IMG/VR virus record: IMGVR_UViG_3300049629_000715
Span: 1 to 61,346 of that record
Direction: 5' to 3' (one strand)
Origin: a virus
Lineage: Duplodnaviria > Caudoviricetes
DNA: 61,346 bases
Shown here: positions 12,671 to 29,808 of the stretch, one piece after another
How the letters are laid out: every line of letters begins with the position of its first letter
How positions within the stretch are numbered: position 1 is the stretch's first letter
Notes under the pieces: generated by a model
Told to the model about the DNA's origin: nothing
Database searches by the model: none
The model's input: the letters and a program-made list of their open reading frames with translations, nothing else
Translations under genes and position numbers: made by a program

Positions 12671-12672
12671 TT

Positions 12673-12930
12673 ATGCCATCTATTAAAACAGCTTCAGTTC
12701 CTGTGACGAATTTCCCATACAAATTCGTTTCCCCATTCAGCGATGACAACATTATACCGCTTTATTCTTCGATCAATTTTATTAACGAAAGAGAAACGAT
12801 TTGTTTGCCATGTGTCGTGTGTGGTAATAATGTAACTCGTCAAAGCGTGATTGAAGAACAGGCGAGCCGATATAAGAATTACATCCCAAATCAATTTAAT
12901 AGAAATAGAATCCGAGTTGGATCAGCATAA
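12673..12930 (+). CDS. Hypothetical protein with CxxCxxC
   Basis: MPSIKTASVP… start at 12673; ICLPCVVC. Confidence 0.6.
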   Translation: MPSIKTASVPVTNFPYKFVSPFSDDNIIPLYSSINFINERETICLPCVVCGNNVTRQSVIEEQASRYKNYIPNQFNRNRIRVGSA

Positions 12931-12932
12931 AT

Positions 12933-13310
12933 ATGACAAAATCAATATCATACAAAACAATACCAAAAGACAGCGGCGAGTTTCTCGAACTCGTAGATTT
13001 CGCAGAAGAATTCGATCACAAAATTGTTGATCATCCGCAAATCAATGTCATCGGTCACTACAAAGACGGAAAACTTTTCGGGTATTCAGATCATGTATTC
13101 ATTCCCGTGATTTATCCGGCGTTTCATCCGGCACACACAACGCCGAGGGATGTTTTGCAATCTATGCACGATCTAAAAGTTTTCGCAGAGGTTTCTGGTT
13201 CCGCAGGATTTATCGGTGTTCCGCTTGAATCAGAAAGAATCACATTCACGAATGGAATAATGCAAAAACTCGGCTTGCAAAGAATGCACCGAGAGCTTTA
13301 TACTTTATAG
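12933..13310 (+). CDS. Possible GNAT-fold virion assembly protein (P22 gp14 / T7 gp13-like position)
   Basis: 125 aa, ends …MQKLGLQR…; sits between the nozzle and the MGG-start proteins. Confidence 0.4.
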   Translation: MTKSISYKTIPKDSGEFLELVDFAEEFDHKIVDHPQINVIGHYKDGKLFGYSDHVFIPVIYPAFHPAHTTPRDVLQSMHDLKVFAEVSGSAGFIGVPLESERITFTNGIMQKLGLQRMHRELYTL

Positions 13311-13320
13311 GAGAAAAATT

Positions 13321-14187
13321 ATGGGAGGAAGTTACCAAGTTCCGACAACCTACAATACAGCGGCAATGTTGCCTCCGCCTGATTCGCAAGGCACATACAA
13401 TATTCTAAAAGCATCGTCGCAGTTGGGTGGCGGAGCGATGGATTTGCATCGCAAAAATGTTGAAATGGCATCCAAGATGCCGCCGATTCGGATGGAGTAT
13501 AATCCTTCGGAACTTTCAAAACAAACAGCGGAATTCGGTGTTGGTAATGTGTTGAGGGAGCGTCAAATTGAATCTTTCACCAATCCTGCGGCGGCAAGAA
13601 TGCGTTTGGATATTGCCGAGCAAATTGAAGAGGCGACTTCTCCAGATGCTTTCAAATCTTTTTTTGATCGGTTCGCTAAAGAGCGTGGAATTTCTTCAAT
13701 AGCTGGTAGCGGGATTGATCCAAACAGCACGATTGGACGATCCGCGATTTATGACGCAACAACGGAAGCTGGCAGGAATTTTCTGTTAGGGAATATCAAC
13801 GCTCGGCAAGGGTTTTTACAGCAAACTCCCGCTCCAATTGGCGGAATTGATCCCGGACAGGCAATTTCCGCGCAGGAAGCCAACAGAGCCGCAAATATCG
13901 GTCAAATGAACGCTTGGCAAGCAGGACAAATGCAGAATGTTTTTGGTCTTGGCCAAGGATACGCTGATTTCGTTAATAAAATGATGGGTGAAACGCTCTC
14001 CGCGAACCAAGCGGAGCAAGCAAATTTGCGTCAATATCAAGAAAAACTCATCAACGATTTGCTTGGGCAAAAAAACGCAGAAAATCAAATGCGAGGAATG
14101 GCGGCGCAAGGCGACCAAGCGATGACTGGCGCTCTTGCTGGCGCGGGAATTGGCGCGGTTGGCTTGATTGCGGCGGCAATGATTTAA
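13321..14187 (+). CDS. Putative DNA ejection/internal virion protein
   Basis: MGGS start, Q/A-rich helical body, C-terminal Gly-zipper hydrophobic tail GALAGAGIGAVGLIAAAMI. Confidence 0.6.
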   Translation: MGGSYQVPTTYNTAAMLPPPDSQGTYNILKASSQLGGGAMDLHRKNVEMASKMPPIRMEYNPSELSKQTAEFGVGNVLRERQIESFTNPAAARMRLDIAEQIEEATSPDAFKSFFDRFAKERGISSIAGSGIDPNSTIGRSAIYDATTEAGRNFLLGNINARQGFLQQTPAPIGGIDPGQAISAQEANRAANIGQMNAWQAGQMQNVFGLGQGYADFVNKMMGETLSANQAEQANLRQYQEKLINDLLGQKNAENQMRGMAAQGDQAMTGALAGAGIGAVGLIAAAMI

Positions 14188-14188
14188 T

Positions 14189-15154
14189 ATGGAAAACCTA
14201 ATAAATACGACAGTCGAATACATAAAATTGTGGAATCAAAATTGGCCGAGATCGGTCATTTTTTGGTCTGGCGGGAAAGATTCAACGGCATTGTTGCATC
14301 TGATCAAATTTCGTGCTGGCTTGGATTTGCCAGTTGTTCAGTTTCGAGAACCAAAATTCCGCGAACGATACGCTTATAGTGACAAACTCATTAAAGACTG
14401 GAAACTCGAAGTTCACGATTATCCGCCGCTTCGCGTTGCTTTGGCTGATGGGCCTGATGTCAATACTGGCGAGGTTCGCTTTGATCTACTGAAATACTTC
14501 CAATGGGGTCAAAAGTGCATGGTGATGAGCCTCGGAACAGAACGACCAAAAGAAGGCGAAGATTTTCTGTGTGGATTGAATGACTTTCTGTTTCGCCCAA
14601 CGGGAACATTTAATTGGCCTTGGGGCGCGGTTTGGATTGGAACGAAAAATACCGACACAGACCTCATTAAAGGCCAAGTTGCCGTAACAACTCACATTCG
14701 CTACGCAGACGGCTCCCCTGTGAGCTTGTATCCCCTGCGAGATTGGTCAGATAAAGATGTTTATGACTACTTGGAGCTTTCTGGAGTTGAACCTGATCCA
14801 ACTCGATACATTAAAGAAGGTGAAAACTGGATAAACAATCCTGACAAGAGCTTAAACGCAGATTTTTATCCTGTTTGCTTGAATTGCGTTGATCGCCACC
14901 AAGGGCAATATGTTGATTGCCCGAAATTGAAGGCAAAAACCAGCAATATCAGCCATCTCGCGCCTTACGAAGATATTGTTATTGATGACCTCGGGTTCCG
15001 TCCGGTAGATTGGAAAAAAAATAAATCAATATGTATGACTGTGAAACCTGCGGAGCCTGTTGCGCCTACAAATGGTCTTGGCCCGTCCTCAAACGAGATA
15101 AATCAGACGCAAACGGAATACCGCACGACTGGATTCGCCCAGACTACCCATTGA
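14189..15154 (+). CDS. PAPS-reductase/DndC-like PP-loop (adenine nucleotide alpha hydrolase) protein
   Basis: FWSGGKDS PP-loop, YPLRDWSDKDVYDYL motif, C-terminal CLNC…C. Confidence 0.8.
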   Translation: MENLINTTVEYIKLWNQNWPRSVIFWSGGKDSTALLHLIKFRAGLDLPVVQFREPKFRERYAYSDKLIKDWKLEVHDYPPLRVALADGPDVNTGEVRFDLLKYFQWGQKCMVMSLGTERPKEGEDFLCGLNDFLFRPTGTFNWPWGAVWIGTKNTDTDLIKGQVAVTTHIRYADGSPVSLYPLRDWSDKDVYDYLELSGVEPDPTRYIKEGENWINNPDKSLNADFYPVCLNCVDRHQGQYVDCPKLKAKTSNISHLAPYEDIVIDDLGFRPVDWKKNKSICMTVKPAEPVAPTNGLGPSSNEINQTQTEYRTTGFAQTTH

Positions 15155-15306
15155 TGAAAACAGAAAATAACAGATGCGTTGCTTTAAAAGGGGAAATCGG
15201 AGTTTCCGTTAAGTGTTCTGTATATAATTGCAGGCCTACTGCGTGTAGAAAATTTGAACCCGGATCAGAGTTGTGCATTGAAGCAAGAAAGGCGAAAGGA
15301 ATATAA
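15031..15306 (+). CDS. YkgJ-like Cys-cluster (CxxCxxCC, Fe-S/Zn) protein
   Basis: DCETCGACC…RCVAL…CSVYNCRPTACRKF…C. Confidence 0.85.
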   Translation: MYDCETCGACCAYKWSWPVLKRDKSDANGIPHDWIRPDYPLMKTENNRCVALKGEIGVSVKCSVYNCRPTACRKFEPGSELCIEARKAKGI

Positions 15307-15308
15307 TT

Positions 15309-15872
15309 ATGGGCGGATCATCATTCGGAAAACAATTTGGCAAGATAACAACTAAAATTGTTGATCCTTTTGGAATTGGCAAAACTAAATTCGGTAAGAC
15401 CGTAATGAAAGTTGTTGATCCATTAAACATAATGGACCCATTGAATGTATTACCCGGAAAAGGTGAGAAATGGGGAACTCTAGATAAAAATTATGGTGGC
15501 CCATTAAGAAAAATGTTTGGCGGAGGCGGCGGAGGAAGCGTCGGATATCACCAACCATACGACTTTAAAGCAATGCAAGGAATGATGCAAAGCGACACAT
15601 CAAATCAGATGATGGGCGATTTGATAACGCAACAGGCAATGGCAAATCAGGCGGCATCTACGCAAACGGCGGCAAATTTACAAGCGGCAAACGCTCAACA
15701 ACAGCAAAACATCAATTCTGCTATGCAAAATTCTCGTCAAAACATGAACAATTTTTTGCTTCGGACGCCAGTTCCATCTACATTTTCAGCAATTACACCA
15801 GCAACCCAAAATAAAACAACTAACAACGCATTCAAAACTCCGAATGTTGCTGGTTTGACATTCGGAAGTTAA
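15309..15872 (+). CDS. Putative internal virion protein A (MGGS start, C-terminal tag)
   Basis: Low-complexity Q/A/N; ends NAFKTPNVAGLTFGS. Confidence 0.65.
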   Translation: MGGSSFGKQFGKITTKIVDPFGIGKTKFGKTVMKVVDPLNIMDPLNVLPGKGEKWGTLDKNYGGPLRKMFGGGGGGSVGYHQPYDFKAMQGMMQSDTSNQMMGDLITQQAMANQAASTQTAANLQAANAQQQQNINSAMQNSRQNMNNFLLRTPVPSTFSAITPATQNKTTNNAFKTPNVAGLTFGS

Positions 15873-15887
15873 TAGAAAGGAAAAATT

Positions 15888-16463
15888 ATGGGAGGATCAG
15901 CCCCAAGAGGACCAAGTCAAAGTCAAATCAATGCGCAAAGAGCGCATGAACAAGCAATGTTGAAGATGCAAATGGATCTTGCTCAACAGCAAATGAAACA
16001 ACAGCAGGATATGCTCAAATATCAAATAGAACAGGCTAATAAACAGCGCATTGCCGCAGAGGAGGCCGCAAAACAGGCGGCAATCCAATCACAATCTGCG
16101 ACAGCACAAAATGCCGCACAACAAAACCTGCAAGATGTCGCTCAAAAAATTGAGGGCATGAATACGATGCAAAATTTGGCTGATCAATCAACATTGGCTG
16201 ATTATCAAAATAGTTTGACAACAGGAGCTGAAAACATGACCGGAGGTTATGATATGGCTAATGCAAAAGAATCTGCTATGCAGAATCTCGGATTGGCTTC
16301 TGGTTCACTTCCGCAAACGCCATCGAATTTGATCGGTTCTTTGTCTGCCGTGAATCCGGCTATGACAACTGCGGCAATAAACACGCAGGCCGGAGGAACA
16401 AAGCAATCGCAAAATCAATTCAGCTTGCCAAATACCAGCGGAATTGTTTTGGGAGGAACATAA
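15888..16463 (+). CDS. Putative internal virion protein B (MGGS start, C-terminal tag)
   Basis: Q/A-rich coiled coil; ends NQFSLPNTSGIVLGGT. Confidence 0.65.
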   Translation: MGGSAPRGPSQSQINAQRAHEQAMLKMQMDLAQQQMKQQQDMLKYQIEQANKQRIAAEEAAKQAAIQSQSATAQNAAQQNLQDVAQKIEGMNTMQNLADQSTLADYQNSLTTGAENMTGGYDMANAKESAMQNLGLASGSLPQTPSNLIGSLSAVNPAMTTAAINTQAGGTKQSQNQFSLPNTSGIVLGGT

Positions 16464-16464
16464 T

Positions 16465-17292
16465 ATGGCTGACATTCTAAAAGAAATCGAAGACGCGGGA
16501 AGAAGTACCGACAATGTTGTTGGGCATTTGACTGTTGGAGAAATTGTTATTCCTGTTCAACTCGCAGAAATTCCAGAAGTAAAAAAAGCAATAAAAGCTA
16601 TTTTCCAAGAATACGGAGTTAGCTTGAATGAATTTACGGTGGGAAATTCTGAAAATAAGATCAATCCTGAAACTGGATATCCGGAATTTTTCTTTAAAAA
16701 AGCTTGGAACGCTGTTAAAAAAGTAGTTTCAGGAGCTGGTAAAGCTGTTAGCAATACAGTGAAGAATGTTAGTAAAGTTGTTACAGGTAAATCTAAACCC
16801 AAAGCTCCTAAAACCACAACTCCTGCCGCGACAAGCACAACGCAAGAAGATTTGCAAAAACAATTGGATCAGGGGAAAAAAGATTTTAAGAAGACGATGG
16901 CTGGCCTGAAAAAACAAGATGAAGATAACAGAATAAAAGCTGAAAAAGACGCAAAAGATCGAGCTATTGCCGAAGAATCTGCAAGAGCAAGAGGTCTTGC
17001 CGCGACAAATCAACAGGAAATAGCAACACAACTTGATCAAGCTCTTTCAAAACCTTTGATTCAAGATGTCGTCACAAATGCTCCTCAATATAGTCCGAGC
17101 GGATTTGGTGCTGATATGCCAAAAAAAGCTGTTCCGGGAGCTGGCGGAGGGCCAACCCCTTCTGAAACAGCCGCGACAATGCCAGCGGGTCTTTTGGCGC
17201 AAAAAATCAATCAAGACAGCGGCGGAACAAATATGGCGACTAATCGTTTCAATATCCCAAATGTAGAAGGTCTTCAATTCGGAGGCTCGTAA
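16465..17292 (+). CDS. Putative internal virion protein C with INPETGxPEF domain and C-terminal tag
   Basis: GRSTDNVVGHLTVGE…INPETGYPEFFF; ends NRFNIPNVEGLQFGGS; start MADIL at 16465. Confidence 0.65.
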   Translation: MADILKEIEDAGRSTDNVVGHLTVGEIVIPVQLAEIPEVKKAIKAIFQEYGVSLNEFTVGNSENKINPETGYPEFFFKKAWNAVKKVVSGAGKAVSNTVKNVSKVVTGKSKPKAPKTTTPAATSTTQEDLQKQLDQGKKDFKKTMAGLKKQDEDNRIKAEKDAKDRAIAEESARARGLAATNQQEIATQLDQALSKPLIQDVVTNAPQYSPSGFGADMPKKAVPGAGGGPTPSETAATMPAGLLAQKINQDSGGTNMATNRFNIPNVEGLQFGGS

Positions 17293-17295
17293 TTT

Positions 17296-19005
17296 ATGAC
17301 TAACGCTGGCTATAATTTTTCATACACTCCTAAACCATCATCCGCATTAGCAAATCTGAATCCGATTTCACTCGGCGAAGGATTAAGATTTCAAGCTGAC
17401 GCGCCGATGAAATTCATTGAACAGCGGCCAGAGGTCGTGATGGAAGGAATTTTGAAAGGTCGCCAGCAAATGGCTGAATCTATTACAGAAGGAGCCTTAT
17501 CCGCTCTTGGTAATATAACGGGAGCGTTCAAAGAGGAACGGCAAGCCAAAAAAGAAGCTCAAGAAAAAGCGGATCAACGAGAGCATGAATTAACGATTTG
17601 GGATAAACGCGTCACAGCCGTTAAGCCTGAAAATGAACGCGACATTCTTTACGATAACCTTCGGAATCAACTTACAGAACAAAAGTTGTTGGAGATGGAA
17701 AATCGGGTGAATGCCGTAACGCCAACTGCTGTTCGTGAAAAAGGATATTTTTCTAGTGATCCAGTAGATATTCCGATTGAGGATATGCCGAAGAGTTTAG
17801 ATGAGGAGAAAAAACAATCTTCCTTGATGAATTTGCAGACTCCAATTCCTAACATTGCGTCTAATGAGCCTGCTCCAATTTTATCGAACATCAACGACAT
17901 TTCAGCCTTTGCGCCTCCTGTTGACGGATACTCATTGGCTGGCGTTAGTGCGCCTAAAACTGCCGACCGAATTTTCCCTACAAGTGAAGGTCAGGTTAAT
18001 TTTGGCGGCGAGACATTTGAATTAGAGCGAGTCAGCGGAGCAGAAGGGGTTCCTACTCTTGCTTCTACTCCTGCGCCGCCACCAACCAAAGCTCCTGTTT
18101 CAAAACAGCAAGCGGAACAATCTCGCTTGACTCCTTCTCCTGCGGAGTTCGTTGATAAAGTAACTGGTCAACCAGAATCAAAGAAAAGACAGCCAACCGC
18201 GTATGAAATTGAACAATACTACGCTGGCGAGCCATACGGCAGTCTTGCTGACGCTAATTTTGCCAAACGCGAAATGGGCAAATTAGGATATAAAACTAAA
18301 GTTACGCCAATCGAAGACCCGACAAGCAAAAAGCGCATCTATTATGTGGAATACGAGCAAGCTGGCGAGGAACCAACAAAAGGGTTAAGAATGGTTGAAG
18401 CCACGGAAAAAGATGGCGTAATAACCAAGAAATACGAGCCGGAAATCGCTCCTAAAAAGAAAATATCAGCATTAGATAGCGGTCAATTTCAGTTAGAGGC
18501 AATGGTAAAATCTATCAATGATATTAAAAAATTGCAAACCGAAGGATATTTACCAGAAACTGGAAAATTCTCATCATATCTTGCAAAACTTCCTGTCACA
18601 ACAGACGCTTCAAGGACACGAGGATTTTTGAAACCTATTCTGGCTAATGCCGCTTTCAAAGCAATTACAGAAATGCGTCAAGCAAGCCCCACGGGGGCGG
18701 CAGTTGGTGGTGTTTCGGATAAAGATTTGGAACTATTGATGAATACCATGGGGGCAATCGATCCAGACAATCTTGATGATCCGTATTTCACAGAAAATCT
18801 TAATAAGATTGCAGAACTTGCACAAAGAACTCTTTCTGGCATTCAGAATGACAAAGTTGCAATCTTGAAACAGGTAAAATCGCAAGGAGAAGAAATAGAT
18901 GGAATTCCTCTTGTTGAAAATCAAGCAGAATATGATGCTGTTCGTAAAGGGCGGCAGTATTACGGGTTGAAAACTGGCCAACTAAAACTTTTTACTAAAG
19001 AATAA
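17296..19005 (+). CDS. Putative ejection protein
   Basis: Helical C-terminal domain with MRQASPTGAAVGGVSDKDLELL motif, typical of podovirus-type ejection proteins as I recall them; synteny. Confidence 0.55.
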   Translation: MTNAGYNFSYTPKPSSALANLNPISLGEGLRFQADAPMKFIEQRPEVVMEGILKGRQQMAESITEGALSALGNITGAFKEERQAKKEAQEKADQREHELTIWDKRVTAVKPENERDILYDNLRNQLTEQKLLEMENRVNAVTPTAVREKGYFSSDPVDIPIEDMPKSLDEEKKQSSLMNLQTPIPNIASNEPAPILSNINDISAFAPPVDGYSLAGVSAPKTADRIFPTSEGQVNFGGETFELERVSGAEGVPTLASTPAPPPTKAPVSKQQAEQSRLTPSPAEFVDKVTGQPESKKRQPTAYEIEQYYAGEPYGSLADANFAKREMGKLGYKTKVTPIEDPTSKKRIYYVEYEQAGEEPTKGLRMVEATEKDGVITKKYEPEIAPKKKISALDSGQFQLEAMVKSINDIKKLQTEGYLPETGKFSSYLAKLPVTTDASRTRGFLKPILANAAFKAITEMRQASPTGAAVGGVSDKDLELLMNTMGAIDPDNLDDPYFTENLNKIAELAQRTLSGIQNDKVAILKQVKSQGEEIDGIPLVENQAEYDAVRKGRQYYGLKTGQLKLFTKE

Positions 19006-19007: not shown

Positions 19008-22000
19008 ATGATTTCATGGGAACCGCCAGAAAAGGACAAAGAATCGAAACTTGAAGATGAGGCTTGGACTCCGCCAGATAAAGATCAAGAATCGACGATT
19101 ACTGCACAAGCAACTTCACAATGGACGCCTCCGGTTAAAGATGATCCAGACGATCTGGCGAACATAAAAGACCCGTTAAAGCTCAATTCGCTTAAACAAT
19201 CTGGTCAGCCGTTAAGCGAGGAGCAGGAAAGAATTGTTTTTGATTGGGAGGATGAAAAGCCAATCTCCCAAAGGGCGAGTGAATTTACCGCAAAAGCGAT
19301 TCCTGCGGCGGCAACGAGCCTCGCAGATATAGCTGTTGGTGGCGCAGAGTTTGGTTACAAAGGCATCTTGATGCCAGCCCAAGACATTCTGACTGGTGGG
19401 CTGTATTATTCGCCGGAAGAAAGAGCAAAAATCTGGCGCGAACAGAATTTATCAACAAGAGCATTGGCTTCTGGAGGCGCGCAAGGTCTTGATGAAGCTA
19501 TCGAAGCGGGAACTCGATTGGCAATTTACGGATCGTCGATTACCGATAAAATTCAAGGTTTGCCAAAAGAACAGCGATTCCGACGATACATGTCTCGGGA
19601 GACGATGCGGAAATTCGCTCAAGCCGCACGGGATGAAACTCCCGATACGCTCGCAAGGCTTGCCGCTGAAAGTCCGTTGATACAAAAGATGGTGACAACC
19701 ATCGTCGGAATGCAGGGAGCCGATCCAGAAGCGCAAAAAGTGGCTGTCGAGGAATACGAAAAATTGGTCAAAGAAAGCGGGTTGACCAAAGAGGAATTAG
19801 AAGAATTCAGGAAAATTGTAAATTTCGGTGATGTCAAAATGCCGACCTCTATTCCCGGAGCAAATACGGTGACTGCGGCTATTTCCAAGCCATTGACAGC
19901 GGCGACACGCAAAGCTGGTGAAGTTACCTTGAAAGGTTTGAATCTCGGAAGCAGGGCGACTGGCTGGACTGCTGGTAAAACGATTAAAGGCGGTGAGTGG
20001 GTTCAGCAAAAATCCAAAGACATCGGGCAGTATGCCGTAAATGATCCAGACACTTTTGTTAAAACAGCAACAAATACGCTGTTGGCTCCCGTCATGCTCG
20101 TTGCGAAGCCGACGAAAAGTGTTGCTGATGTAATAACTGACATCACTCGCCAAGTTGATAAAGGCGGAGCCGCTGGCCGAAAGGGAATGATCCAAAGGGC
20201 AGGAGAAGATATTCGCTCATCTGAATTGACTCGGAAACTTTTCGGGCGCGAAGGCAAAGGTGGCGTTGGTCGCGCTAGAGTTGCTGATTGGGCTATCAGG
20301 CAATCAAACGCAATGATTCAGCCCGGAGTTAGTTCGGGAACATTGAATGTTCTGATGGGATTGCCTGATGCCGAAACTGCGGCGCAAGCAGGACAACAAT
20401 TCGGCACGGGATTTGGCATGGGAGCATACGCCGGAAGCCGTGTTGAATCGCGTGTTGGCGGATTGATTGATCCACGGACAACGATGGCGCAGAAAATATC
20501 GAATCTTGTTACTCCTGACCCAACGCAGTTGCGCCGAGATCAAGACGCCGACATTAAAAGATTCATGGCTTCCGCTTCTCCTGAATTGGTTGGCCAAATG
20601 AAAGATTTGGCAAGTATTGATAAGCGGAAAGTTGCTGTTGATACAAGAATTTCTGAATTGGAAGAAATTCAAGCCAGAATGATCAACGAAGAGGATTCTG
20701 CATTTATTCAAAAACAGATTGATGGCTTAAAAAAACAAAAGGAAGCTCTCGCTAAATCTACGCCGGAAACTCAACGCGAATACGATCGATTGGTTCAACT
20801 AACAACGCTCGACATTATGGATCAGGCAAAATCAGTCGGATTGGCGGCTGGATTGCGCGGATTGAACTTGGTTTTCCTTGATCCAAAAAACGCAGAACAA
20901 TTCTACCGAAATCTGTATGGTCAGAATTTGATTGACGCTGAAAAAGCCATGGCTGTTCTCAAAAACAAGCCATTCATGACGCCTGATGAGGAAAACACCT
21001 TACGGCTGGCTAACGAAACGATGTCTTCGTTTTATCAAGATGTTCAGAATTTGGAAAATAGCCGAGGCATTTCTGTTCGGGAAAGCATCACTGATCCAGA
21101 AAGTCCAGATTTCGTTCCTTCGCATTTGCGCTATTTGAATCAACAAGGCGCAACGGCTGTTATCAATATGGACTTGGTGAAACACCTGACTAATCAGGGA
21201 TTCAATCTTCGCCATACCATGCAACATGAGGTGCAACATGCTTTGGAGAACTTCAAAGAAGTGCAGGACTTGATGGCTCCATTGCGCAAATATCTTTTTG
21301 ATCAAAAAGTAAAAACTCCAGATGGCGGAGTTGAAGTTGTTAGCAATGGCATATTCGACGATGAAAAACTTGACGCTTACGCGATGGTTTATGGCGATAG
21401 GTTTTCCCCGCAAGATGGAGGAGCAAGTTTCGTCGCTCAATTCGGCGGAGACATTGAAAAACAACGGAACTATATCAAACGCGAGATTCTTTCCGAGATT
21501 GCGGCTGTTGCGGGAGAATATCAAAGCGGAAGCAGGGCGGTTCTTGATGATGTCGGAAGAAAGGCTATCGACTGGCTGGAAGTGAAAACCCGTGACGGAT
21601 ACCTGAAGAAACTTAAAGAGGGGTTGCGTAAGGCTGGTGTCGTGTTTGACAAAACAGGCGGGTATTCTGAATTGCTTGACGCGAAACTTACGCCAGAGGT
21701 TCTCGCGGCTGTTCGTGAATATCAGAGGGGCGTTCGTGATATTAACGGAGCATTGACATATAATTCCGATATTGAGGCCGAGGAACCAGACATTCCAATC
21801 ACAAAAATTTTAGGTAATAGGGCATTGCAGGAAAAATATAAGGAAGTCGCCCCATTTGAGCTTGAGCCAGTAGTAAAGGTGACTCAACCAGACGGATCAA
21901 TCTCTGAAATCAAAGTTCCCGAGGGCGCAAATCTTGATTCATTAGTTGGGGTGTATCGCATCAAGGACGGAAAATTCATTGATGAGGACGGGAACGAAAT

Positions 22001-25000
22001 GGTTCTTGCGCCAGAAATCAACATCAGCGCAATGCCTGACGGAACGCAATTTCAAATCAATACCCGCATTGCGAGAAAACCTGATGGTAGCCCGATAACA
22101 ATTAGTAATCGGGAAATGAAACGCAGGGCTGTAGATCGCACGAAAATGATCATCGACGCGGTTAATTCTGCGCCTAAAGACGATTCCCCATATAGAATGA
22201 TTGATATTGGAAATGGGAATTATAGCGGGGCAATGTCGCCAAGCCAAGTTGAGGCATTAAGGAAAATCCCTAATCTTATCCTTTCACCAAACCTGAAACG
22301 CAAAATTGAGTTTCTAAATGACATTTTGCGCCGTGGTGACGGAACTCGCGTTATGATGGAATATCAAGCGTCATTGTTAAACGGAAAGTATCAGGCATTG
22401 TCCCCAAAACTCCGTGATGAGGTTCCTATTGGGTTTAAGATAACAAAAGACGGCAACTTTACGCTGACAACGATGTCTGTAAGCCGGATGCACGATAAAA
22501 TGAACGCATGGGCGTCAAATAAGCCAATGCGATTGCAGGCATGGGGTGGGGATACTGGGAAATTTTGGGATTCACTTATCAAATATCTCGACAACCACGC
22601 GCAAGGCAAACATGGCGAAGAAGGATTAGACCCTGACCCGTATATTGCGCTTCGCAAGAAATATGCAATCAACGATCTTTTCAATGTCTATAATGCAGAG
22701 ACAAAAGCGGCGAACCCTGAAAGAACAACACTTCCACGGCAAAAGGGAAAAGACCCTATAGATATTATCGTCCGATCAAGAAGGCTGGATCGCATCAATG
22801 ATTATAGCGAAATGAGCGCGCAAAAGTTGCCAATGAACTACGGCAAACTTCGGGACAATTACATGCCGGAAATCAATCCGCTTGCGCGTCCGCAATCGCC
22901 AGAAGACATGATGGCAAATCTTGATGGTAGCGTGACGGCAACAAGAATCCGCCAAGCCATCGCCAGCGGCAATGTGGAGCAACTGGAGTCCGAATTGCGG
23001 ATGAGTGATGACTTGCTCCCATTTGAATCATTGTATGTGTCACAGGGCGAAACTGGAGAACCGCAGATTCAGGTTGTATCCATGCTTGATCCGGGAATCG
23101 AGCCAAGCGTAGAGCGTTCTGAAATCCCAACAGACATTGATGCGGAAACAGAAGCTGAAATGGCTCGTTTGGATTCTGAATATGACATGGCAGAAATGGG
23201 CCAACAGGGCCAACAGGGCCAACTGGAACAACAACAGGGTCAACAGGGCCAACTGGAACAACAAAAGGGTCAACAGGATCAACAGGGCCAACAGGTGCCA
23301 ATGGCTCGCGCTGAATTCATTCCTTCTCAAGCTCAATACATGCCTGCTTTTAATTCAGATGAATACGGGTTAGAAGAAGGCCAAGAAGCGGAAAATCGTT
23401 TAACACCAAGAACGCTTTACAACCTTTATTATATCGCAACAGAACCAGAACCAACATCGGAATATGGCCGCGAAATCACAAATCAATACATAAATAAATA
23501 CAAAAACTTGTATGTTGATGTTTTTTCAAATTTAGTTCGCCAACAAATTGAAAAATACATTGGGAGAGGTCGCGTTGATTCCAATGTTACTAAAAAAGCT
23601 CTCGATAAAGCTGACACTCCCGCAATGCTTGATGAATTGATGCGGGGAACTTATCGGAGTGACATGCGGAGACGCAACGATGTTTGGAATACTGTTACCG
23701 AGCATTTGAAAAATCTCTCTGCCGCGACAACAAAGAAAGATAAAATTTTTTATATGGATCGCCTGAATAATTCGATTCATAACACGCAGGAGCTTCTTTT
23801 CAGCAAATTCAGCAATTATAGACAACTGCAAGAAGCATTTGATTCAATTCATAATGCGCGTGACACGCGAGCTTACTCGCAACGAGTCGATAAAGATTTG
23901 CGTGAATTTAACTCTTTCAGAGGAACGCAATACATGCCGCAAGTGCCAGCCGTAAATCAATACGGATTCTACTCTCGCCTTGAGGAAGGTATTCGCAACG
24001 CAAACCAGCAAACATTCTCGCCAGAGCAAGCAAAGGCTCTTGCTTTGAAATCCACAAACAAAGAGGAATTGAAGTGGTCTGGAATTGAAAATGCCATCAA
24101 CAATATCGCAGAAGAAAACAACGGCAAAGTTCCAAAGCAAGCATTGTTAGATTACATGGCAGACGAGGGGAAAGTTCAGTTTGAAGAAACCAATTTAGCA
24201 AAATTCAATCGCTCAGAGGAAATTGCTAAAAAATACGGAATTACTTTAGAAATAACGCAAGAGGAAGTTCTCGCGTGGGATAAAGATAATGAAAGTTTGG
24301 AGTGGGATGAATTCCCAGAAGAACTAAAGCAGGAATTGCTTCGCACTCAAAATATGCAGGAATATAAATATGCTAAATATCAACTTCCCGGAGGGCAAAA
24401 TTATCGTGAAGTTGTCTTGACGATGCCTGAAAAAGAAGCCGGAACAAAACAATACACTTATGATGATATAATTTTAACAAAAGGAAAATCTAATTGGAAG
24501 TTTAAAACAAAAGATGGTGTTGTGAGTGGTTCAATACCCGGAGGGTTATATCCTGAAGAAATTGCTCGTGATTACGCTTTGCAAATGGCGCAAACATCGG
24601 AATCTACACTTAAAAAACCTTCTGGAGAAAAATCAACATATACAAGTTCTCACTTCGCAAACATTCCAAACTATGTAGCGCATATGCGCTTGAATGAACG
24701 CACAGATGCCGAAGGCAACGATGGCTTGTTTATTGAAGAGATCCAGTCTGACAGGCATCAGCAGGGCAGGGAGAAAGGATATGCAGAGGAAAAAGAAGTA
24801 ACAGCAAAATTGGTCCCATTTAAGTACCCAAATGGCTTCATTGAATATTATTATCATATATATGATCCTAAAACAGACAAGCCAATACTTCGAGATAATG
24901 GCGAGCCTGTTACTCTTGCAAAAGGATTTGGCAAACAGCAAAGATCAGAGCAAGATGCAATTAGAATATATAAAGAAAGTGTTGCCAATCTTGTTCCAGA

Positions 25001-28000
25001 CGCACCATTTCGCAAAGATTGGCCACTGCAAATGTTCAAGCGTGCATTGCGTGATGCTGTTGAATCTGGAAAGAAATGGATCGGGTGGACTGATGGAGAA
25101 ACGCAAGCTGATCGGTATGACTTGAGTCAACAAGTAAGTGAAATAATTGCATGGCCTGTCGGAGAAGAAGGCGCATTTAAGTTTGTTGACAATAAAGACG
25201 CCAAAAAAATGTTTGTGACAGTGCGAGGACTTAAAGGAAACACAATTTTTGAACAAGCGGTTGAAAAGGGAAAACTATCTGATCTTGTTGGAAAAGATTT
25301 GGCAAATAAAATGATTTCTCAAATCGGATCAGAATCAGTAACATACTCAGGCCCAAATCTCAAAATCGGCGGCGAAGGCATGAAAGAATTCTACGACACC
25401 ATCCTTCGTAACAAACTTGGCGAGTATGTAGACAAGATGGGTGGGAAAGTTGAGAAGTCTAAAATTCAAACGGGTAAAAAATACGACTTTGAATTATTTA
25501 ACCCTGAAGGAGAACCAAAAGGCGTGTTTGTTCTCCGAGATCGAATGACAGGTAAATTTTTGGCAGATAGTGAAAAAGAAACTTTTTTATCTCGCGCAGA
25601 AGATGGAGAACTAATGTCTCAAAAAGTTGCAGAGTCAATGATTGAGGCATTTTCTAAAGATACTGAAACCCCAATCTGGCGAGTAAACATCACGCCAGAA
25701 ATGCAAAAATCGGTTCGCGCTGGGCAACCGCAATACATGCCATATATCCCATATTCTATGCCGAAAGATCCTCGGCAGATTATGGCGGATTTCTATTTGC
25801 TAACGACTGTTGGCGACATCGCAAAGAGTGCGGGAGAAAACTGGCGCATTGCTTTCGATCCAGAAAGAACAACGATTCAAGGAAAAGCAACTGATCTACA
25901 AAAGCTTCTGACATTGCCAACACGCCAAGGTCTGAACTACGAAAAATACGGACAGAATCTTGAAGACGCAGTTCAGAAACTCACGCAGGGAATGAAGAAG
26001 CACATGCTGGATTCTCTCTTGTTTTCGATTTCGGCAGAACTTCGCCACTATAAAGCAAATCGTCAGCCAGAGGAATTGTTGGATAATCCTTTCATGAAGG
26101 CGTATTCCAAGATTTACGATGCTTACGACGCTGTTGCAGACAAAAATCTTCCTGAATACGCACAAAAATACTTAAAGCCAATGTATCCAGAAACGCCGAG
26201 GGCGAGGATTTCAAAAGGTAGCAGAAAAAGTTATCAGCTTTCAAATGCGGCAGTAAGAAAAGCATTTGAGGAAACAGGAATATCAATTTCAGAATTCGCT
26301 GATATAGCAGAAAAATTATTTCGAGAAGGAAATTGGAATAAACAATTTGGCGGAGAAAATTGGGGGAATATTGCCGCAGGATTGCAAATGGTTGATCAAG
26401 CCAACGATCCTGAATCTCTCATTAAAGCTCTTGATAACGCTTACGATCTTCAACACAATACGGGAGTTGTATTTGATAAAATTCAAAAATATGCTCGCGA
26501 AGGCGGTTATCAATGGTTGCAGGACATGTTGGATTTCAAATATCACGCCGGAAGCCCACGGGAATTTGCGTCTTTGGCAAGTTCTGCGGCGAAACGGATC
26601 ACCGCGCCAGCATTGATTGATATTGGTGATATCGCAATAGATAAACGCCGAGAGAACGCAGTTGCGGTTGCTGGTGAAGATACAATTTCAGATATTGAGG
26701 ATCAGATTCGCCGACTAAAACCGAACAGAGAGAACATATATCAAGACATCAATGTTAAGGCTCCGAAATATACTGGCAAAGACATCAACGAAGAATTGCA
26801 AAAATGGCTCGTAAATACAACGACATCGGGATTCTCGCAGACACCGAATAAATTGAAAAAGCTCGGAGTGAATTCAGATGTCATTCAATATGTAAGATTG
26901 CTTTTAGCGCAAAAGATGGCTCCGAAATGGAATGTTCCGCAAGACATTAAGGAAATGGTGTCAAAATCAGTTGCGAAATCTAAAGCGAAAAATCAAACAG
27001 AAGTAGAATATGGGCCTCCGATTGGAATTCCTGAAAAATCAAATCTTGCAAAAGTTCCCGCGCCAGTAAAGGAAGGGGGAAATATCATTCCTGCTGATAT
27101 TGGTGAATTGAAACAACAGATTCACAAATTGATGCACCTGCACACGGAATCAGATATTGGAACGATGGTTCCGTATAAAGGATTGATGTTTTCTGGAATG
27201 AAGAATATCCCCGCAAATACTTTCACGATTAAAATTTACAAAGACGGAACTAAAATTGATGAAGCAACTTTCAATCTGAAATCGCCTGTCTATGATAATT
27301 CCGTATACGCATATCTTTACTATAATACGCCAGTAAAAGAACAAACAAAAGCAGAAAATCTTGCTGATCTCGCATTGCCTTCTCAAGATATAAAATGGAC
27401 TCCTGTTTATAGCGGAAAAGGAGAATATGTTAATTTTGTGAATGGAGATGAACCAATCTCAACGGATATGACAGCATACTTCGATGGGAAGCCATTATTT
27501 GCTGAATTTATATTAGACGGAGATGCTTTGCATATCAAAACAGAAAAAGGAGACGATTATTCAATTCCTTTTTCACATGAATCAAGCGCAGACGCAAAAT
27601 CTTCTTTCATTCAACAAATGCTTGGAAAATATACAGATATTGTTAGCGATATAAAAGAATACGAAGGAATAGATTTATCTTTCACTCCGCCAAAACCAGC
27701 TTCTTTAGCACAAACAAAAGCCCCATCATCCGAGCCTTCTTTGTCACCAGATTTTAGGCCTGTCGCAATGACGATAGAACAACTGAAACAGTTAATCGTA
27801 AATCCGAAGACAGGAGAAATCTCAACACAACCGCTGAAAATTCTGATTAATACAGAGTTGAATTATTTTCCGGAAGAAAAAAAGAGTGGATTGGCTATAT
27901 GGGGAACGAAATACGCAGAATGGGCAAAGAAAGCTTCTGCCGAGGAACTATGGCCGTCTGTTACCGGAAAGCCATATGAAGATGTTGCATCCCAAAAGTC

Positions 28001-28925
28001 ACAGTCGCTGAAATCCGAGGATCAAGCTATTGCTGACTACAAAGATTACAAAAAATTCAAATACGACCAATGGTATGCCGATCAATCGAAGAAATTAAAA
28101 GAGAAGCTACCTGATGAAGTCGTTAAAACGATATTGGATTTTGCTTGGGTTCAAACTGACACAGGTTCCACTATTCCGACAGTAGAAGAAGTGTTCCAAA
28201 AAGTTAAAAACAAATTAGGCAATCTTCTTTTATCAACGGATGACATAAAACTTTTGAATGAATCTATCGATTCTGCAATCGGAGAAGCGGCAAAAGGAAT
28301 GTTTTCTGTAAATCCAACATCATTAGAGAAAATTCCGAGTTTCATGAATTCGCAAAAAGTAATGGAATTATATGAAGCGGTAAAAGCGGGAATCTCTTGG
28401 GATGACACGGAAGGCGGAGAATCGATTTCTGACAATCTTGAAGAATTAAATCTTTCTGAACTCTCTGATGAGAATATCGAAGAACTCAAGAAATGGTATA
28501 ACTCGGTTCTGGATTACGAGAACGAGAAAAAAGAATTCTACGGGGAATTTAAAGAGGAAACGAACGAGCAGAAAAACGCTGAAACTGATCCGGAGGTTGA
28601 TTATTACAAAAAAGCGTTCAATGAATTCGTAAATTACGACTGGAAAGAATTGTCATCTGGGCCAGAATTTGCGAAAGATTTAGTTGAATATCTATTCGGC
28701 TCCAAAGATTTTGATTTTGCGATGAATAGAACCATTTCAGTTGGGAGAAAATTTTTAGTTCCTTACGCTCCCGGAGGAGACAAAGTTTATATTCTTCACG
28801 GCAAAGATCAGAATATAGATGGTAGCGTGATTTTTGATATGTCGAAAAAGACAAAAGAGCAGACCAAACAAGAGATGATTGATTGGGTTGCGCATTTCAT
28901 CGATTACTACGATCCTAAAATCTGA
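19008..28925 (+). CDS. Giant (3305 aa) polyvalent-type internal virion/ejection protein with HExxH metallopeptidase-like motif
   Basis: Uninterrupted ORF; HEVQH at aa 740; IEEIQSD module; repeated YMP linkers. Confidence 0.75.
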   Translation: MISWEPPEKDKESKLEDEAWTPPDKDQESTITAQATSQWTPPVKDDPDDLANIKDPLKLNSLKQSGQPLSEEQERIVFDWEDEKPISQRASEFTAKAIPAAATSLADIAVGGAEFGYKGILMPAQDILTGGLYYSPEERAKIWREQNLSTRALASGGAQGLDEAIEAGTRLAIYGSSITDKIQGLPKEQRFRRYMSRETMRKFAQAARDETPDTLARLAAESPLIQKMVTTIVGMQGADPEAQKVAVEEYEKLVKESGLTKEELEEFRKIVNFGDVKMPTSIPGANTVTAAISKPLTAATRKAGEVTLKGLNLGSRATGWTAGKTIKGGEWVQQKSKDIGQYAVNDPDTFVKTATNTLLAPVMLVAKPTKSVADVITDITRQVDKGGAAGRKGMIQRAGEDIRSSELTRKLFGREGKGGVGRARVADWAIRQSNAMIQPGVSSGTLNVLMGLPDAETAAQAGQQFGTGFGMGAYAGSRVESRVGGLIDPRTTMAQKISNLVTPDPTQLRRDQDADIKRFMASASPELVGQMKDLASIDKRKVAVDTRISELEEIQARMINEEDSAFIQKQIDGLKKQKEALAKSTPETQREYDRLVQLTTLDIMDQAKSVGLAAGLRGLNLVFLDPKNAEQFYRNLYGQNLIDAEKAMAVLKNKPFMTPDEENTLRLANETMSSFYQDVQNLENSRGISVRESITDPESPDFVPSHLRYLNQQGATAVINMDLVKHLTNQGFNLRHTMQHEVQHALENFKEVQDLMAPLRKYLFDQKVKTPDGGVEVVSNGIFDDEKLDAYAMVYGDRFSPQDGGASFVAQFGGDIEKQRNYIKREILSEIAAVAGEYQSGSRAVLDDVGRKAIDWLEVKTRDGYLKKLKEGLRKAGVVFDKTGGYSELLDAKLTPEVLAAVREYQRGVRDINGALTYNSDIEAEEPDIPITKILGNRALQEKYKEVAPFELEPVVKVTQPDGSISEIKVPEGANLDSLVGVYRIKDGKFIDEDGNEMVLAPEINISAMPDGTQFQINTRIARKPDGSPITISNREMKRRAVDRTKMIIDAVNSAPKDDSPYRMIDIGNGNYSGAMSPSQVEALRKIPNLILSPNLKRKIEFLNDILRRGDGTRVMMEYQASLLNGKYQALSPKLRDEVPIGFKITKDGNFTLTTMSVSRMHDKMNAWASNKPMRLQAWGGDTGKFWDSLIKYLDNHAQGKHGEEGLDPDPYIALRKKYAINDLFNVYNAETKAANPERTTLPRQKGKDPIDIIVRSRRLDRINDYSEMSAQKLPMNYGKLRDNYMPEINPLARPQSPEDMMANLDGSVTATRIRQAIASGNVEQLESELRMSDDLLPFESLYVSQGETGEPQIQVVSMLDPGIEPSVERSEIPTDIDAETEAEMARLDSEYDMAEMGQQGQQGQLEQQQGQQGQLEQQKGQQDQQGQQVPMARAEFIPSQAQYMPAFNSDEYGLEEGQEAENRLTPRTLYNLYYIATEPEPTSEYGREITNQYINKYKNLYVDVFSNLVRQQIEKYIGRGRVDSNVTKKALDKADTPAMLDELMRGTYRSDMRRRNDVWNTVTEHLKNLSAATTKKDKIFYMDRLNNSIHNTQELLFSKFSNYRQLQEAFDSIHNARDTRAYSQRVDKDLREFNSFRGTQYMPQVPAVNQYGFYSRLEEGIRNANQQTFSPEQAKALALKSTNKEELKWSGIENAINNIAEENNGKVPKQALLDYMADEGKVQFEETNLAKFNRSEEIAKKYGITLEITQEEVLAWDKDNESLEWDEFPEELKQELLRTQNMQEYKYAKYQLPGGQNYREVVLTMPEKEAGTKQYTYDDIILTKGKSNWKFKTKDGVVSGSIPGGLYPEEIARDYALQMAQTSESTLKKPSGEKSTYTSSHFANIPNYVAHMRLNERTDAEGNDGLFIEEIQSDRHQQGREKGYAEEKEVTAKLVPFKYPNGFIEYYYHIYDPKTDKPILRDNGEPVTLAKGFGKQQRSEQDAIRIYKESVANLVPDAPFRKDWPLQMFKRALRDAVESGKKWIGWTDGETQADRYDLSQQVSEIIAWPVGEEGAFKFVDNKDAKKMFVTVRGLKGNTIFEQAVEKGKLSDLVGKDLANKMISQIGSESVTYSGPNLKIGGEGMKEFYDTILRNKLGEYVDKMGGKVEKSKIQTGKKYDFELFNPEGEPKGVFVLRDRMTGKFLADSEKETFLSRAEDGELMSQKVAESMIEAFSKDTETPIWRVNITPEMQKSVRAGQPQYMPYIPYSMPKDPRQIMADFYLLTTVGDIAKSAGENWRIAFDPERTTIQGKATDLQKLLTLPTRQGLNYEKYGQNLEDAVQKLTQGMKKHMLDSLLFSISAELRHYKANRQPEELLDNPFMKAYSKIYDAYDAVADKNLPEYAQKYLKPMYPETPRARISKGSRKSYQLSNAAVRKAFEETGISISEFADIAEKLFREGNWNKQFGGENWGNIAAGLQMVDQANDPESLIKALDNAYDLQHNTGVVFDKIQKYAREGGYQWLQDMLDFKYHAGSPREFASLASSAAKRITAPALIDIGDIAIDKRRENAVAVAGEDTISDIEDQIRRLKPNRENIYQDINVKAPKYTGKDINEELQKWLVNTTTSGFSQTPNKLKKLGVNSDVIQYVRLLLAQKMAPKWNVPQDIKEMVSKSVAKSKAKNQTEVEYGPPIGIPEKSNLAKVPAPVKEGGNIIPADIGELKQQIHKLMHLHTESDIGTMVPYKGLMFSGMKNIPANTFTIKIYKDGTKIDEATFNLKSPVYDNSVYAYLYYNTPVKEQTKAENLADLALPSQDIKWTPVYSGKGEYVNFVNGDEPISTDMTAYFDGKPLFAEFILDGDALHIKTEKGDDYSIPFSHESSADAKSSFIQQMLGKYTDIVSDIKEYEGIDLSFTPPKPASLAQTKAPSSEPSLSPDFRPVAMTIEQLKQLIVNPKTGEISTQPLKILINTELNYFPEEKKSGLAIWGTKYAEWAKKASAEELWPSVTGKPYEDVASQKSQSLKSEDQAIADYKDYKKFKYDQWYADQSKKLKEKLPDEVVKTILDFAWVQTDTGSTIPTVEEVFQKVKNKLGNLLLSTDDIKLLNESIDSAIGEAAKGMFSVNPTSLEKIPSFMNSQKVMELYEAVKAGISWDDTEGGESISDNLEELNLSELSDENIEELKKWYNSVLDYENEKKEFYGEFKEETNEQKNAETDPEVDYYKKAFNEFVNYDWKELSSGPEFAKDLVEYLFGSKDFDFAMNRTISVGRKFLVPYAPGGDKVYILHGKDQNIDGSVIFDMSKKTKEQTKQEMIDWVAHFIDYYDPKI
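23197..23296 (+). repeat. Tandem GQQ/QQG low-complexity repeat inside the giant ORF
   Basis: ggccaacag / ggtcaacag units encoding GQQGQQGQLEQQQGQQGQLEQQKGQQDQQGQQ. Confidence 0.9.
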
Positions 28926-29629
28926 TGTTCTCCGCGATTGGCTCACTTCCGAAACACAGATATGTGTTCGTTGATTCCCGTTTCACTCACGAAGAGCCAT
29001 GCGGGTATGTTCCGGCAGTTTGGTTTGGGCTGGTCAGTTTTCCCGGCAGAGCGTGGGGATGCCATGTGATGTTAGAGTGTGGTGCGGTTTATCGCTCCCT
29101 GCCACCTCATGCTCTCTCTTTTACCGAGAATCCGGAGGAATGGTCAGTTGAGCAGGCGCAGATGTGGGATTGCTACGGGACGCGCTGGTCAGCGGAGGAA
29201 TACACCTATCTGCGAGGATTGAAAGTTACCTGCAAAGTCGAAGGCAAGCTGTATGATGGCGATTATCTTTTCACTATCGCGCCGTTGGAGGATGGGTTCA
29301 GCGAAGCTCCTGAACAATCGAAAGAATTTATGTTCTGCAAACTGGATAATGGCAGATTGACAATTCAGCCGACAAATAGGGTTCTTTTTGAAGATCGCAG
29401 TTTTACTGGCGGGGAAATGCCAAAGTTGAAATTGCAAACTGACACCTATTCTTGCGAGCAAAACCCACCGCTAACCGAACGCAAACCCAAGCCTATCCCA
29501 ACGCAAACCCTCCCATTCCCCAATACCCATTCCCCATTATTAAAAATAAAAAACCTTTTCAATTCCGGAAAACGAGTTTTAATCCGCATCGCCAGAATTT
29601 TCTGGCATCAAAATAAATACAACCCATAA
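28925..29629 (+). CDS. Conserved-looking phage hypothetical protein with an origin-like C-terminal extension
   Basis: GAVYRSLPPHAL…QMWDC…NGRLTIQPTNR globular part, then a Pro-rich tail derived from repeats. Confidence 0.7.
   Translation: MFSAIGSLPKHRYVFVDSRFTHEEPCGYVPAVWFGLVSFPGRAWGCHVMLECGAVYRSLPPHALSFTENPEEWSVEQAQMWDCYGTRWSAEEYTYLRGLKVTCKVEGKLYDGDYLFTIAPLEDGFSEAPEQSKEFMFCKLDNGRLTIQPTNRVLFEDRSFTGGEMPKLKLQTDTYSCEQNPPLTERKPKPIPTQTLPFPNTHSPLLKIKNLFNSGKRVLIRIARIFWHQNKYNP
29461..29535. repeat. Iteron-like C-rich repeats, second copy
   Basis: Shares AACCCACCGCTAACC, AAACCCAAGCC, CGCAAACCCTCCCA and CCCAATACCCAT with 39376-39434. Confidence 0.8.
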
Positions 29630-29640
29630 AATAAATATAT
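29556..29640 (+). promoter_or_regulatory. Early promoter-like cassette P1 (TTTTCA-N16-TTTAAT, hairpin, A-rich leader)
   Basis: Same hexamers and spacing as at 31124; GCCAGA-attt-TCTGGC hairpin follows. Confidence 0.55.
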
Positions 29641-29808
29641 ATGTTAGAAAACGCCCAAACAAAACTCGACAATCTGCAAACACTTCAAGTTTGCGCCGTA
29701 GACCAAGGAATGGAAGTTACCATCTCGGTTGACGAAGATGGTTTCTATTACATCGGAGAAAAGATGTTCACAGATTATAAATCAGCACTCCGCTATCTCG
29801 TGAAATGA
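29641..29808 (+). CDS. Small hypothetical protein (55 aa)
   Basis: MLENAQTKLDNLQTLQVCAVDQGMEV…; A-rich leader; ATGA overlap with the next gene. Confidence 0.6.
   Translation: MLENAQTKLDNLQTLQVCAVDQGMEVTISVDEDGFYYIGEKMFTDYKSALRYLVK

Follow-up and report, generated by a model that had tools for sequence, protein, structure and literature searches.

Why would a phage keep a gene for a PAPS-reductase-like enzyme among the genes for its ejection proteins? This question is raised by virus record IMGVR_UViG_3300049629_000715, a complete viral record of 61,346 bp with direct terminal repeats, which we analysed at its full length and call the window. On its + strand lies the gene for a 321-residue PP-loop ATP pyrophosphatase (14189..15154), assigned to the PAPS-reductase/CysD/FAD-synthase fold from Pfam, PHROG, its motifs and an AF2 model. 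The next gene (15031..15306, +) encodes a 91-residue YkgJ/CxxCxxCC cysteine-cluster protein. Immediately upstream of the pair, on the same strand, lies the gene (13321..14187) for a 288-residue internal or ejection-type virion protein, here called EjA, which begins with MGGS, is Gln/Ala-rich in the middle and closes at its C-terminus with a glycine-zipper tail that is uncharged and Gly/Ala-rich. The best explanation we can offer for the pair is a phage-specific accessory enzyme set of the ejection-protein module. Within it, we give a probability of roughly 45% to the reading that the PP-loop protein is a non-structural accessory factor that uses ATP to mature the C-terminal end of EjA, optionally partnered by YkgJ (or a SET-domain protein).

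There is little space between the genes. The EjA stop is one base away from the PP-loop start, the open reading frames (ORFs) of the PP-loop protein and YkgJ share 124 nt, and two bases lie between the YkgJ stop and the next start. The initial annotation had described two enzyme-like genes packed between an MGGS-start gene and genes whose products share a C-terminal tag, and the coordinates, the + strand and the spacers of 1-2 nt agree with this. It had also recognised an SGGKDS PP-loop protein and a CxxCxxCC protein, and both pass their Pfam cut-offs. The GC content is level across the pair, without a composition anomaly; we counted 17 promoter-like sites around it (16.7 expected) and 15 terminator-like sites (10.4 +/- 3.6 expected). 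There is no sign of a separate transcription unit or of foreign composition.

We then followed the gene order through the relatives. The counts are drawn from related loci and hence are not independent, so that relatedness inflates them, and genes were called with simple ORF rules. All 18 close IMG/VR relatives carry the series mini-GNAT (a small GNAT-fold protein), EjA, PP-loop protein, YkgJ, tagged small proteins, mid-size protein and giant protein. In 3 of the 18, one MGG gene stands between the PP-loop gene and YkgJ, and one contig ends within the pair. A distant profile search added 69 more loci (25-52% identity), where the PP-loop gene is positioned directly 3' of a gene for a Gly/Ala-rich protein with an uncharged ending and a hydrophobic last residue. 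The only exception are the SET-bearing loci, with the SET ORF between EjA and the PP-loop gene. By an automated count, 92 of the 98 distinct EjA proteins have no charge in their last 15 residues; of the six exceptions, four are gene-call errors and two have one or two charges at -12 to -15. In 50 cases the PP-loop start shares one base with the EjA stop (spacing -1 nt). The pair had been placed outside the DNA-metabolism region, and all 98 distinct PP-loop genes were found in the ejection block instead; synteny of the subfamily, which had been proposed as a check, gave a fixed position across very distant relatives and not random loci.

To find sister phages without the enzyme, we searched with a conserved tail (nozzle-type) protein of ~700 residues. 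Out of 600 pattern matches 589 were confirmed, and the best 80 of at least 589 were analysed. Sixteen of those 80 loci had at least 5 kb of downstream sequence and no PP-loop gene. The enzyme-negative EjA proteins end differently, with charged residues at the end of 16 of the 17 distinct ones. All six that we tested (L118 at 12229-13350, L119, L134, L137, L143 and L152) contain a Peptidase_S74 intramolecular chaperone domain (E 7e-15 to 1.5e-12), which is in frame and starts right after the EjA glycine zipper. Six further enzyme-negative EjA proteins have the same terminal sequence as the tested ones, and we infer that they carry S74 as well. Peptidase_S74 is otherwise known from tail fibres, spikes and endosialidases, and it is self-cleaving and ATP-free. 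Its presence suggests that EjA is a trimeric fibrous protein. The S74 domain is unrelated to the PP-loop enzyme in fold and mechanism, but it occupies the place of the PP-loop gene after the EjA zipper in the sisters, and in one representative (P0187) it is fused to the PP-loop protein. The two may do the same job.

Two mosaic pairs are informative here. In L172 (with the enzyme) and L118 (without it) the EjA core is identical at 257 of 269 residues and the divergence begins exactly at the tail. In L130 (with the enzyme) and L163 (without it) the downstream proteins are 99% identical and EjA is different. The enzyme is thus an accessory one, independent of the giant and mid-size proteins, and it accompanies EjA proteins of the 'tail then stop' type. 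Its presence tracks with the glycine-zipper C-terminus of EjA and not with the tag or an MG start.

Analogous genes exist in cultured phages. In the Lessievirus JC1 the published order is head-closure protein, small ORF, N-acetyltransferase gp63, gp64, 'PAPS reductase' gp65 and gp66, followed by the virion proteins gp67 and gp68 and then by a DarB-like protein of 4515 residues (PMC9144972). We found that gp64 ends in an uncharged Gly/Ala tail, and the same kind of tail stands upstream of the enzyme in GP4 and phiA008. The EjA analogue of GP4 is annotated as virion-associated, and GP4 also has an acyltransferase. In CsCl-purified JC1 virions, mass spectrometry detected gp64, gp67, gp68 and gp69, and gp63 (GNAT), gp65 and gp66 were not detected (PMC9144972). 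A profile of the window family aligned with gp65 in hhalign over 172 columns (probability 97%, E 2.8e-11), and tblastn with gp65 matched 43 GenBank records (31 Ralstonia, 10 Burkholderia, 1 Aeromonas and 1 uncultured). The enzymes of these Bcep22-like Burkholderia phages and related Ralstonia and Aeromonas podophages belong to the PAPS_reduct superfamily and stand in the same slot of genomes of ~55-65 kb, after a GNAT and an uncharged Gly/Ala-tailed virion protein and before further virion proteins and a giant protein. However, gp65 is of a different subfamily: it has 240 residues, CC...CxxC cysteines and an LDTG-like second motif, it is not found by tblastn with the window protein, and it has no YkgJ beside it (gp66 is without Cys). 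BLAST of the window EjA against gp64 was negative, and the parallel between them rests on position and tail type.

Which enzyme does the window gene encode? The protein matches Pfam PF01507 PAPS_reduct (E 3e-6, 27.8 bits with a cut-off of 22.5) in residues 23-81 only. Across 37 members that are 25-42% identical to it, S27, G29, D31 and S32 of the PP-loop are invariant and K30 is conserved in at least 90%. D156, Y207, V242, C128, C230, C233 and C244 are invariant too, and C244 is the only late invariant Cys, in a V-x-C-P-K context. The four cysteines form a putative metal or Fe-S site. The AF2 model (pLDDT 80.7) is closest to CysD (1zun, Z 15.7, root-mean-square deviation 2.7, 155 aligned residues), the PAPS domain of human FAD synthase (Z 15.3) and APS reductase (Z 14.6). 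Over CysD, FAD synthase and the APS/PAPS reductases Z ranges from 12.5 to 15.7, and Foldseek agrees. Ranked lower are tRNA thiolases, LarE, NAD and GMP synthetases, QueC and Cap9. A profile of 23 homologues compared with solved structures found CysD at E 1.1e-9 and CysH and FAD synthase weakly, and at the sequence level CysD and CysH align only around the N-terminal P-loop and in one short stretch further on. The window protein shares with CysD, CysH and FAD synthase the PP-loop motif and the fold (Z 15.7, 13.0-14.6 and 15.3, with ~155-165 residues aligned), but it has an inserted beta-hairpin at ~82-118 and a Cys-rich C-terminal part. It further differs from CysD and CysH in missing the curated cut-offs and in belonging to a family seen almost only in viruses.

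The curated models gave a clear answer. The protein scored 18.2 bits with the CysH equivalog NF002537 (cut-off 154), 31.8 bits with the CysD model NF003587 (cut-off 195), 27 bits with TIGR02039 (cut-off 396.6) and 13.2 bits with DndC TIGR03183 (cut-off 290.4), and the PADLOC DndC model matched merely at E 0.007 over 30 residues. PHROG and Pfam scans recognised no cysN-like gene among the window ORFs covered and no partner genes for thiolation or phosphorothioation. The catalytic Cys motif at the C-terminus of CysH is of the ECGLH type, and this motif is absent from the invariant columns of our alignments. Judged by these models, the PP-loop protein is not CysH, CysD or DndC. Among 1.84 billion protein representatives we found 601 relatives, of which 124 were below E 1e-30 and mostly 260-290 residues long. 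A scan of one genome per prokaryote species gave at least three loci; one match was strong among those listed (L090), and it is a contig of a metagenome-assembled genome with the same phage-like module. The atlas neighbours of the family are 80-100% viral. By these searches, the subfamily is found almost only in viral records.

The end of the PP-loop ORF deserves a comment. The core comprises about residues 1-278 (14189-15022). What follows is read-through that models as disordered (pLDDT below 50 in residues 278-321): these last ~43 of the 321 residues come from YkgJ sequence translated out of frame. Most relatives, with ~277-280 residues, lack them, their ORF stopping 13 nt into YkgJ. A run of eight A (15014-15021) stands just before the usual end of the ORF in the relatives. 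The ORF stays open for 40-80 codons into YkgJ in the window (15022-15154) and, independently, in 357-residue forms elsewhere. We considered a programmed frameshift joining the two proteins and rejected it, since there is a stop just 5' of the YkgJ ATG in the YkgJ frame and no canonical slip site after the A run. The read-through is probably functionless.

Next, we looked at the partners. The protein at 15031-15306 matches Pfam PF03692 CxxCxxCC (E 3.1e-8, 34.6 bits with a cut-off of 23), no NCBIfam model matched it, and an alignment of 18 homologues has invariant Cys at eight positions, 4, 7, 10, 11, 49, 62, 72 and 82. With a hidden Markov model built from the loci, we counted the partners of 82 distinct PP-loop genes that had enough downstream sequence. 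YkgJ stands beside 46 and a SET-like ORF beside 9; 27 have neither of them, and no gene has both. YkgJ and SET were absent from all 16 PP-loop-negative sister loci. YkgJ is also present in clades whose PP-loop proteins are ~28-29% identical to that of the window, so the pairing is old or recurrent. The SET gene adjoins the PP-loop gene in 12 loci, just before or just after it, and is fused to it in two representatives, P0148 and P0197; Pfam SET scored L053 at 37.9 bits and L094, below the threshold, at 20.1 bits. A complex prediction for residues 1-280 of the PP-loop protein with YkgJ, run without controls, scored 0.01 (mark 0.32) and speaks neither for binding nor against it. A protein with a Cys motif in the CxxCxxCC style is FliB, the flagellin lysine methylase, which carries a [4Fe-4S] cluster on a CX4CX3CC motif and acts on a protein substrate. 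However, FliB is far larger than the window YkgJ, its published description terms the PF03692 motif only 'similar', and the likeness is one of motif style.

Other fusions to the PP-loop domain among the representatives are a TPR plus GT9-like domain, an intein, an S74 domain and a DNA methylase with a PP-loop fragment. P0207 and P0232 (~650 residues) join the PP-loop domain to TPR repeats and a GT9-like glycosyltransferase region, and no relative of the P0207 fusion was found among viral contigs. P0180 (670 residues) has an intein with a LAGLIDADG endonuclease inside a family member. P0187 (360 residues) has the S74-like chaperone domain at its C-terminus, with Cys in place of the Ser that precedes the D-x-R-x-K motif in other copies.

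Two genes upstream of the PP-loop gene lies the gene for the 125-residue mini-GNAT (12933..13310, +). Its AF2 model (pLDDT 82.5) has the GNAT fold: all 50 listed VIA rows are of the GNAT type (Z 8.3-9.8) with alignments of ~111-123 of the 125 residues, except 3dns_B (96), and all seven Foldseek matches at E<=1e-3 are GNAT acetyltransferases. Its atlas neighbours include GNAT clusters, which we take as a lead only. No Pfam match was found for 10 members of the sequence family, which was seen only in the window-type clade (40 loci), and the comparison with JC1 gp63 was negative in BLAST and gave a probability of 0.6% in hhalign. From the predicted fold, the protein is a probable acyl-CoA N-acyltransferase. 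The slot is annotated as N-acetyltransferase in JC1 and as acyl-CoA N-acyltransferase in GP4. In many distant loci it is filled by a Cys/His/Trp-rich protein of ~115 residues with an MTPWQ start (L125:9974-10318). This protein occurs in both enzyme-positive and enzyme-negative phages, and we found no family for it and no similarity to the mini-GNAT alignment A3.

How could the PP-loop protein act on EjA? PP-loop enzymes that work on protein ends or side chains are known, namely Cap9, which joins a carboxylate to Gly2 of CdnD, the lasso-peptide cyclases and Dph6. The PP-loop gene would be translated in tandem with the upstream EjA gene. Its product would bind ATP and, in the manner of PP-loop enzymes, probably split it into AMP and PPi; it would then modify the end of EjA via an adenylated intermediate or assist the assembly of EjA. 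The chemistry on the terminal carboxylate could be an amide, thio- or ester-type change, or ATP could drive help in assembly. YkgJ would be an Fe-S-type helper that can be dispensed with, relaying for example electrons, sulfur or alkyl groups. Other lineages have a SET-domain protein, of lysine methyltransferase fold, beside the PP-loop gene instead. In the sister phages, the in-frame, self-cleaving S74 chaperone stands at the position of the PP-loop gene. EjA as the substrate, any chemistry on it and the role of YkgJ are what we infer from the locus. A more specific version, in which the enzyme adenylates the free C-terminal carboxylate of EjA and turns it into a neutral or linked form (amide, thiocarboxylate, or attachment to a lipid or another protein), and the tail then enters the membrane on ejection, seems unlikely to us, though not negligible.

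Several points weigh against an action on EjA. Every solved relative in this fold branch has a nucleotide or sulfate as its substrate, and none a protein. The link between EjA and the enzyme is circumstantial, suggested by gene order and co-occurrence. The fixed position alone is no proof of a functional link, because phage structural modules inherit their gene order as a block. Five of the 17 enzyme-negative sisters have a glycine zipper, then a few polar or basic residues, and neither S74 nor the enzyme, so the EjA tail can do without both. The swap between L172 and L118 does not isolate the tail, because the downstream small proteins also differ. Finally, absence from JC1 virions is only a proxy, because gp65 is of a different subfamily and was aligned over 172 columns.

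The main rival is an enzyme of nucleic acids or nucleotides: thiolation of tRNA or phage DNA, another adenylate-dependent change, or adenylylation of a small molecule, with YkgJ as an Fe-S or redox helper and the slot due to timing or descent. We regard this as possible but rather unlikely; the solved relatives favour it and the locus data do not. The near structures (CysD, FAD synthase, APS/PAPS reductases, TilS, TtuA, NcsA and LarE) are all enzymes of nucleotides, sulfate, FMN or tRNA. The four invariant cysteines are compatible with Fe-S sites such as those of APS reductase, DndC and TtuA-type enzymes, close relatives can lack the gene, and the phage has other DNA-modification genes (TET-associated glycosyltransferase (TAGT), ParB_N and methyltransferases). 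However, the DndC, CysH and CysD cut-offs were missed and partner genes for thiolation or phosphorothioation were not seen in the window scans. Moreover, 98 of 98 distinct genes come directly after EjA with coupled starts and outside the DNA-metabolism region, and some members are fused to SET, a protein-methyltransferase fold.

The enzyme could also be a packaged cargo that is ejected with the DNA, for example to protect the incoming DNA or to alter the host early. Its gene lies among internal virion genes near the giant, and the Lessievirus protein in the place of the giant is annotated as DarB-like antirestriction. But the JC1 analogue was not detected in the purified virions, as reported there, while its neighbours were (PMC9144972), and an oxygen-sensitive Fe-S enzyme would be an unlikely capsid passenger. 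We regard the cargo idea as improbable.

The initial annotation favoured a different model, in which the PP-loop enzyme activates the FGG[ST]-type tag for ligation to the Gly of MGG-start proteins. Some observations speak for it. MG starts are enriched in the module beyond chance (131 of 406 module ORFs, compared with 15 of 352 upstream ORFs of the same loci). The tag is a conserved 14-residue C-terminal motif closing FG(G)x. Moreover, Cap9, a QueC-like PP-loop protein of type IV CBASS, has been described as activating a carboxylate with ATP and joining it to Gly2 of CdnD, whose N-terminus reads GGSGGS after removal of Met. Like the window enzyme, Cap9 is a PP-loop protein (fold match to our model Z 9.0), and it acts on a protein terminus. 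However, it belongs to the QueC branch and not to the PAPS-reductase branch, and the end it acts on is N-terminal, whereas in the window family an N-terminal Gly does not track with the enzyme. MG-start EjA is as common without the enzyme (11 of 17) as with it (66 of 98), in both states including the 257/269-identical pair L172/L118, and in some enzyme-positive lineages EjA has an Ala-Lys-rich (MA-Lys-rich) start. The tag was found in only 20 of the 66 PP-loop loci with enough downstream sequence; 19 of these also have YkgJ and one (L038) does not, while 16 further loci have YkgJ but no tag and 30 have neither. Its Gly-Gly codons are GGAGG in 31 of 53 cases, doubling as the ribosome-binding site of the next gene. 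That the terminal GG is solely such an embedded site was rejected, since the codons differ in 22 of 53 and the motif is kept even with the next gene far away; as a sequence feature, the tag is a genuine peptide motif.

The proposed co-occurrence of the enzyme with MGG-start or tagged proteins was thus not borne out, and neither was ligation of an activated tag to an N-terminal Gly, since neither end tracks with the enzyme. We consider that model very improbable. The broader idea that the enzymes may modify neighbouring virion proteins receives circumstantial support from the fixed slot and the SET and GNAT neighbours. By eye, a weaker Pro-x-(Val/Ile)-Asn-like ending is visible in distant small proteins and may be a remote form of the tag. 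A ubiquitin-like system would pair a beta-grasp substrate ending in GG with an adenylating E1 (ThiF/MoeB); scans of the window found no E1 family apart from a sub-threshold E1_FCCH match, and the tagged proteins are low-complexity and family-less. That match is in a 1247-residue tail protein (6804-10547; 18.6 bits with a cut-off of 29.5) and is probably due to chance.

The weakest alternative, to which we give next to no weight, is an ordinary auxiliary metabolic gene for a CysH-type reductase or CysD-type sulfurylase that boosts host sulfur assimilation: it has in its favour the PAPS_reduct match, the cysH or PAPS reductase annotations of the 43 GenBank phage records and the discussion of the analogous gene as a moron for sulfur metabolism in the literature (including PMC9144972), and against it the CysH and CysD scores far below their cut-offs (18.2 of 154 and 31.8 of 195 bits), the alignment to CysD/CysH in the P-loop region and a short C-terminal stretch only, the V-x-C-P-K context of the last invariant Cys, unlike the CysH motif, and the almost exclusively viral family. 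The doubt first raised from the location of the genes is supported: the pair is no ordinary gene set for sulfur assimilation.

The remaining module genes follow on the + strand. A small low-complexity virion-type protein of 187 residues (15309..15872) has an MGGS start and a tag ending FGS, and a second low-complexity protein of 191 residues (15888..16463) has an MGGS start and a tag ending LGGT. A 275-residue protein with its ATG at 16465 (16465..17292) has a tag ending FGGS and no MGG start. The 569-residue protein at 17296..19005 is a mid-size internal-protein candidate by position; it matches phrog_24864 (unknown function) and stands in the slot of JC1 gp68. The module is closed by a giant protein of 3305 residues (19008..28925) without a Pfam family, in the slot of the 4515-residue DarB-like virion protein of JC1, to which it is likened by position alone.

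The long ORFs of the window are nearly all on the + strand. PHROG and Pfam scans recognised tail fibres at both ends, a terminase and a DNA block with RecT, an exonuclease, a DnaC-like loader, RusA and MazG. The candidates for DNA modification are TAGT, ParB_N and methyltransferases. The ParB_N protein (47866-48537) and TAGT (48497-49408, E 4e-37) lie between the terminase and the presumed portal, and no TET/JBP gene was recognised in these scans; the pair may point to a hypermodified base in the DNA. Immediately behind the giant protein, 28925-30820 encodes members of the phrog_3704 'ferredoxin' family and phrog_15826 and a QueD/6-pyruvoyl-tetrahydropterin synthase (Pfam E 1e-32), and no QueC, QueE or FolE was recognised in the same scans. 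In 50,697 GenBank phage records, tblastn with the window PP-loop protein, with the large terminase and with the distant PP-loop member L054, as well as blastn with 7 kb of window DNA, gave no matches, and the giant protein gave just three weak partial tblastn matches. By sequence similarity, no cultured phage in the GenBank collection is close to the window phage.

Such genes are routinely labelled 'cysH / PAPS reductase' and counted as sulfur auxiliary genes in phage and virome surveys. For the window subfamily, this label is probably wrong. In searches of open-access and bioRxiv literature aimed at it, none of the papers listed addressed an association of the PP-loop gene with the EjA tail and S74. 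If the enzyme did adenylate the EjA carboxylate, which we find unlikely, it would be the first PAPS-reductase-fold enzyme known to act on a protein substrate, and GNAT together with YkgJ or SET would form a phage toolkit for the post-translational modification of injected virion proteins. If the PP-loop protein matures the EjA end, as we prefer, this would turn the way in which podophages prepare their injected DNA-channel proteins into a tractable question. Cultured phages with the analogous gene exist, and the PP-loop gene or the S74 chaperone after the same glycine zipper provides a concrete and testable handle.

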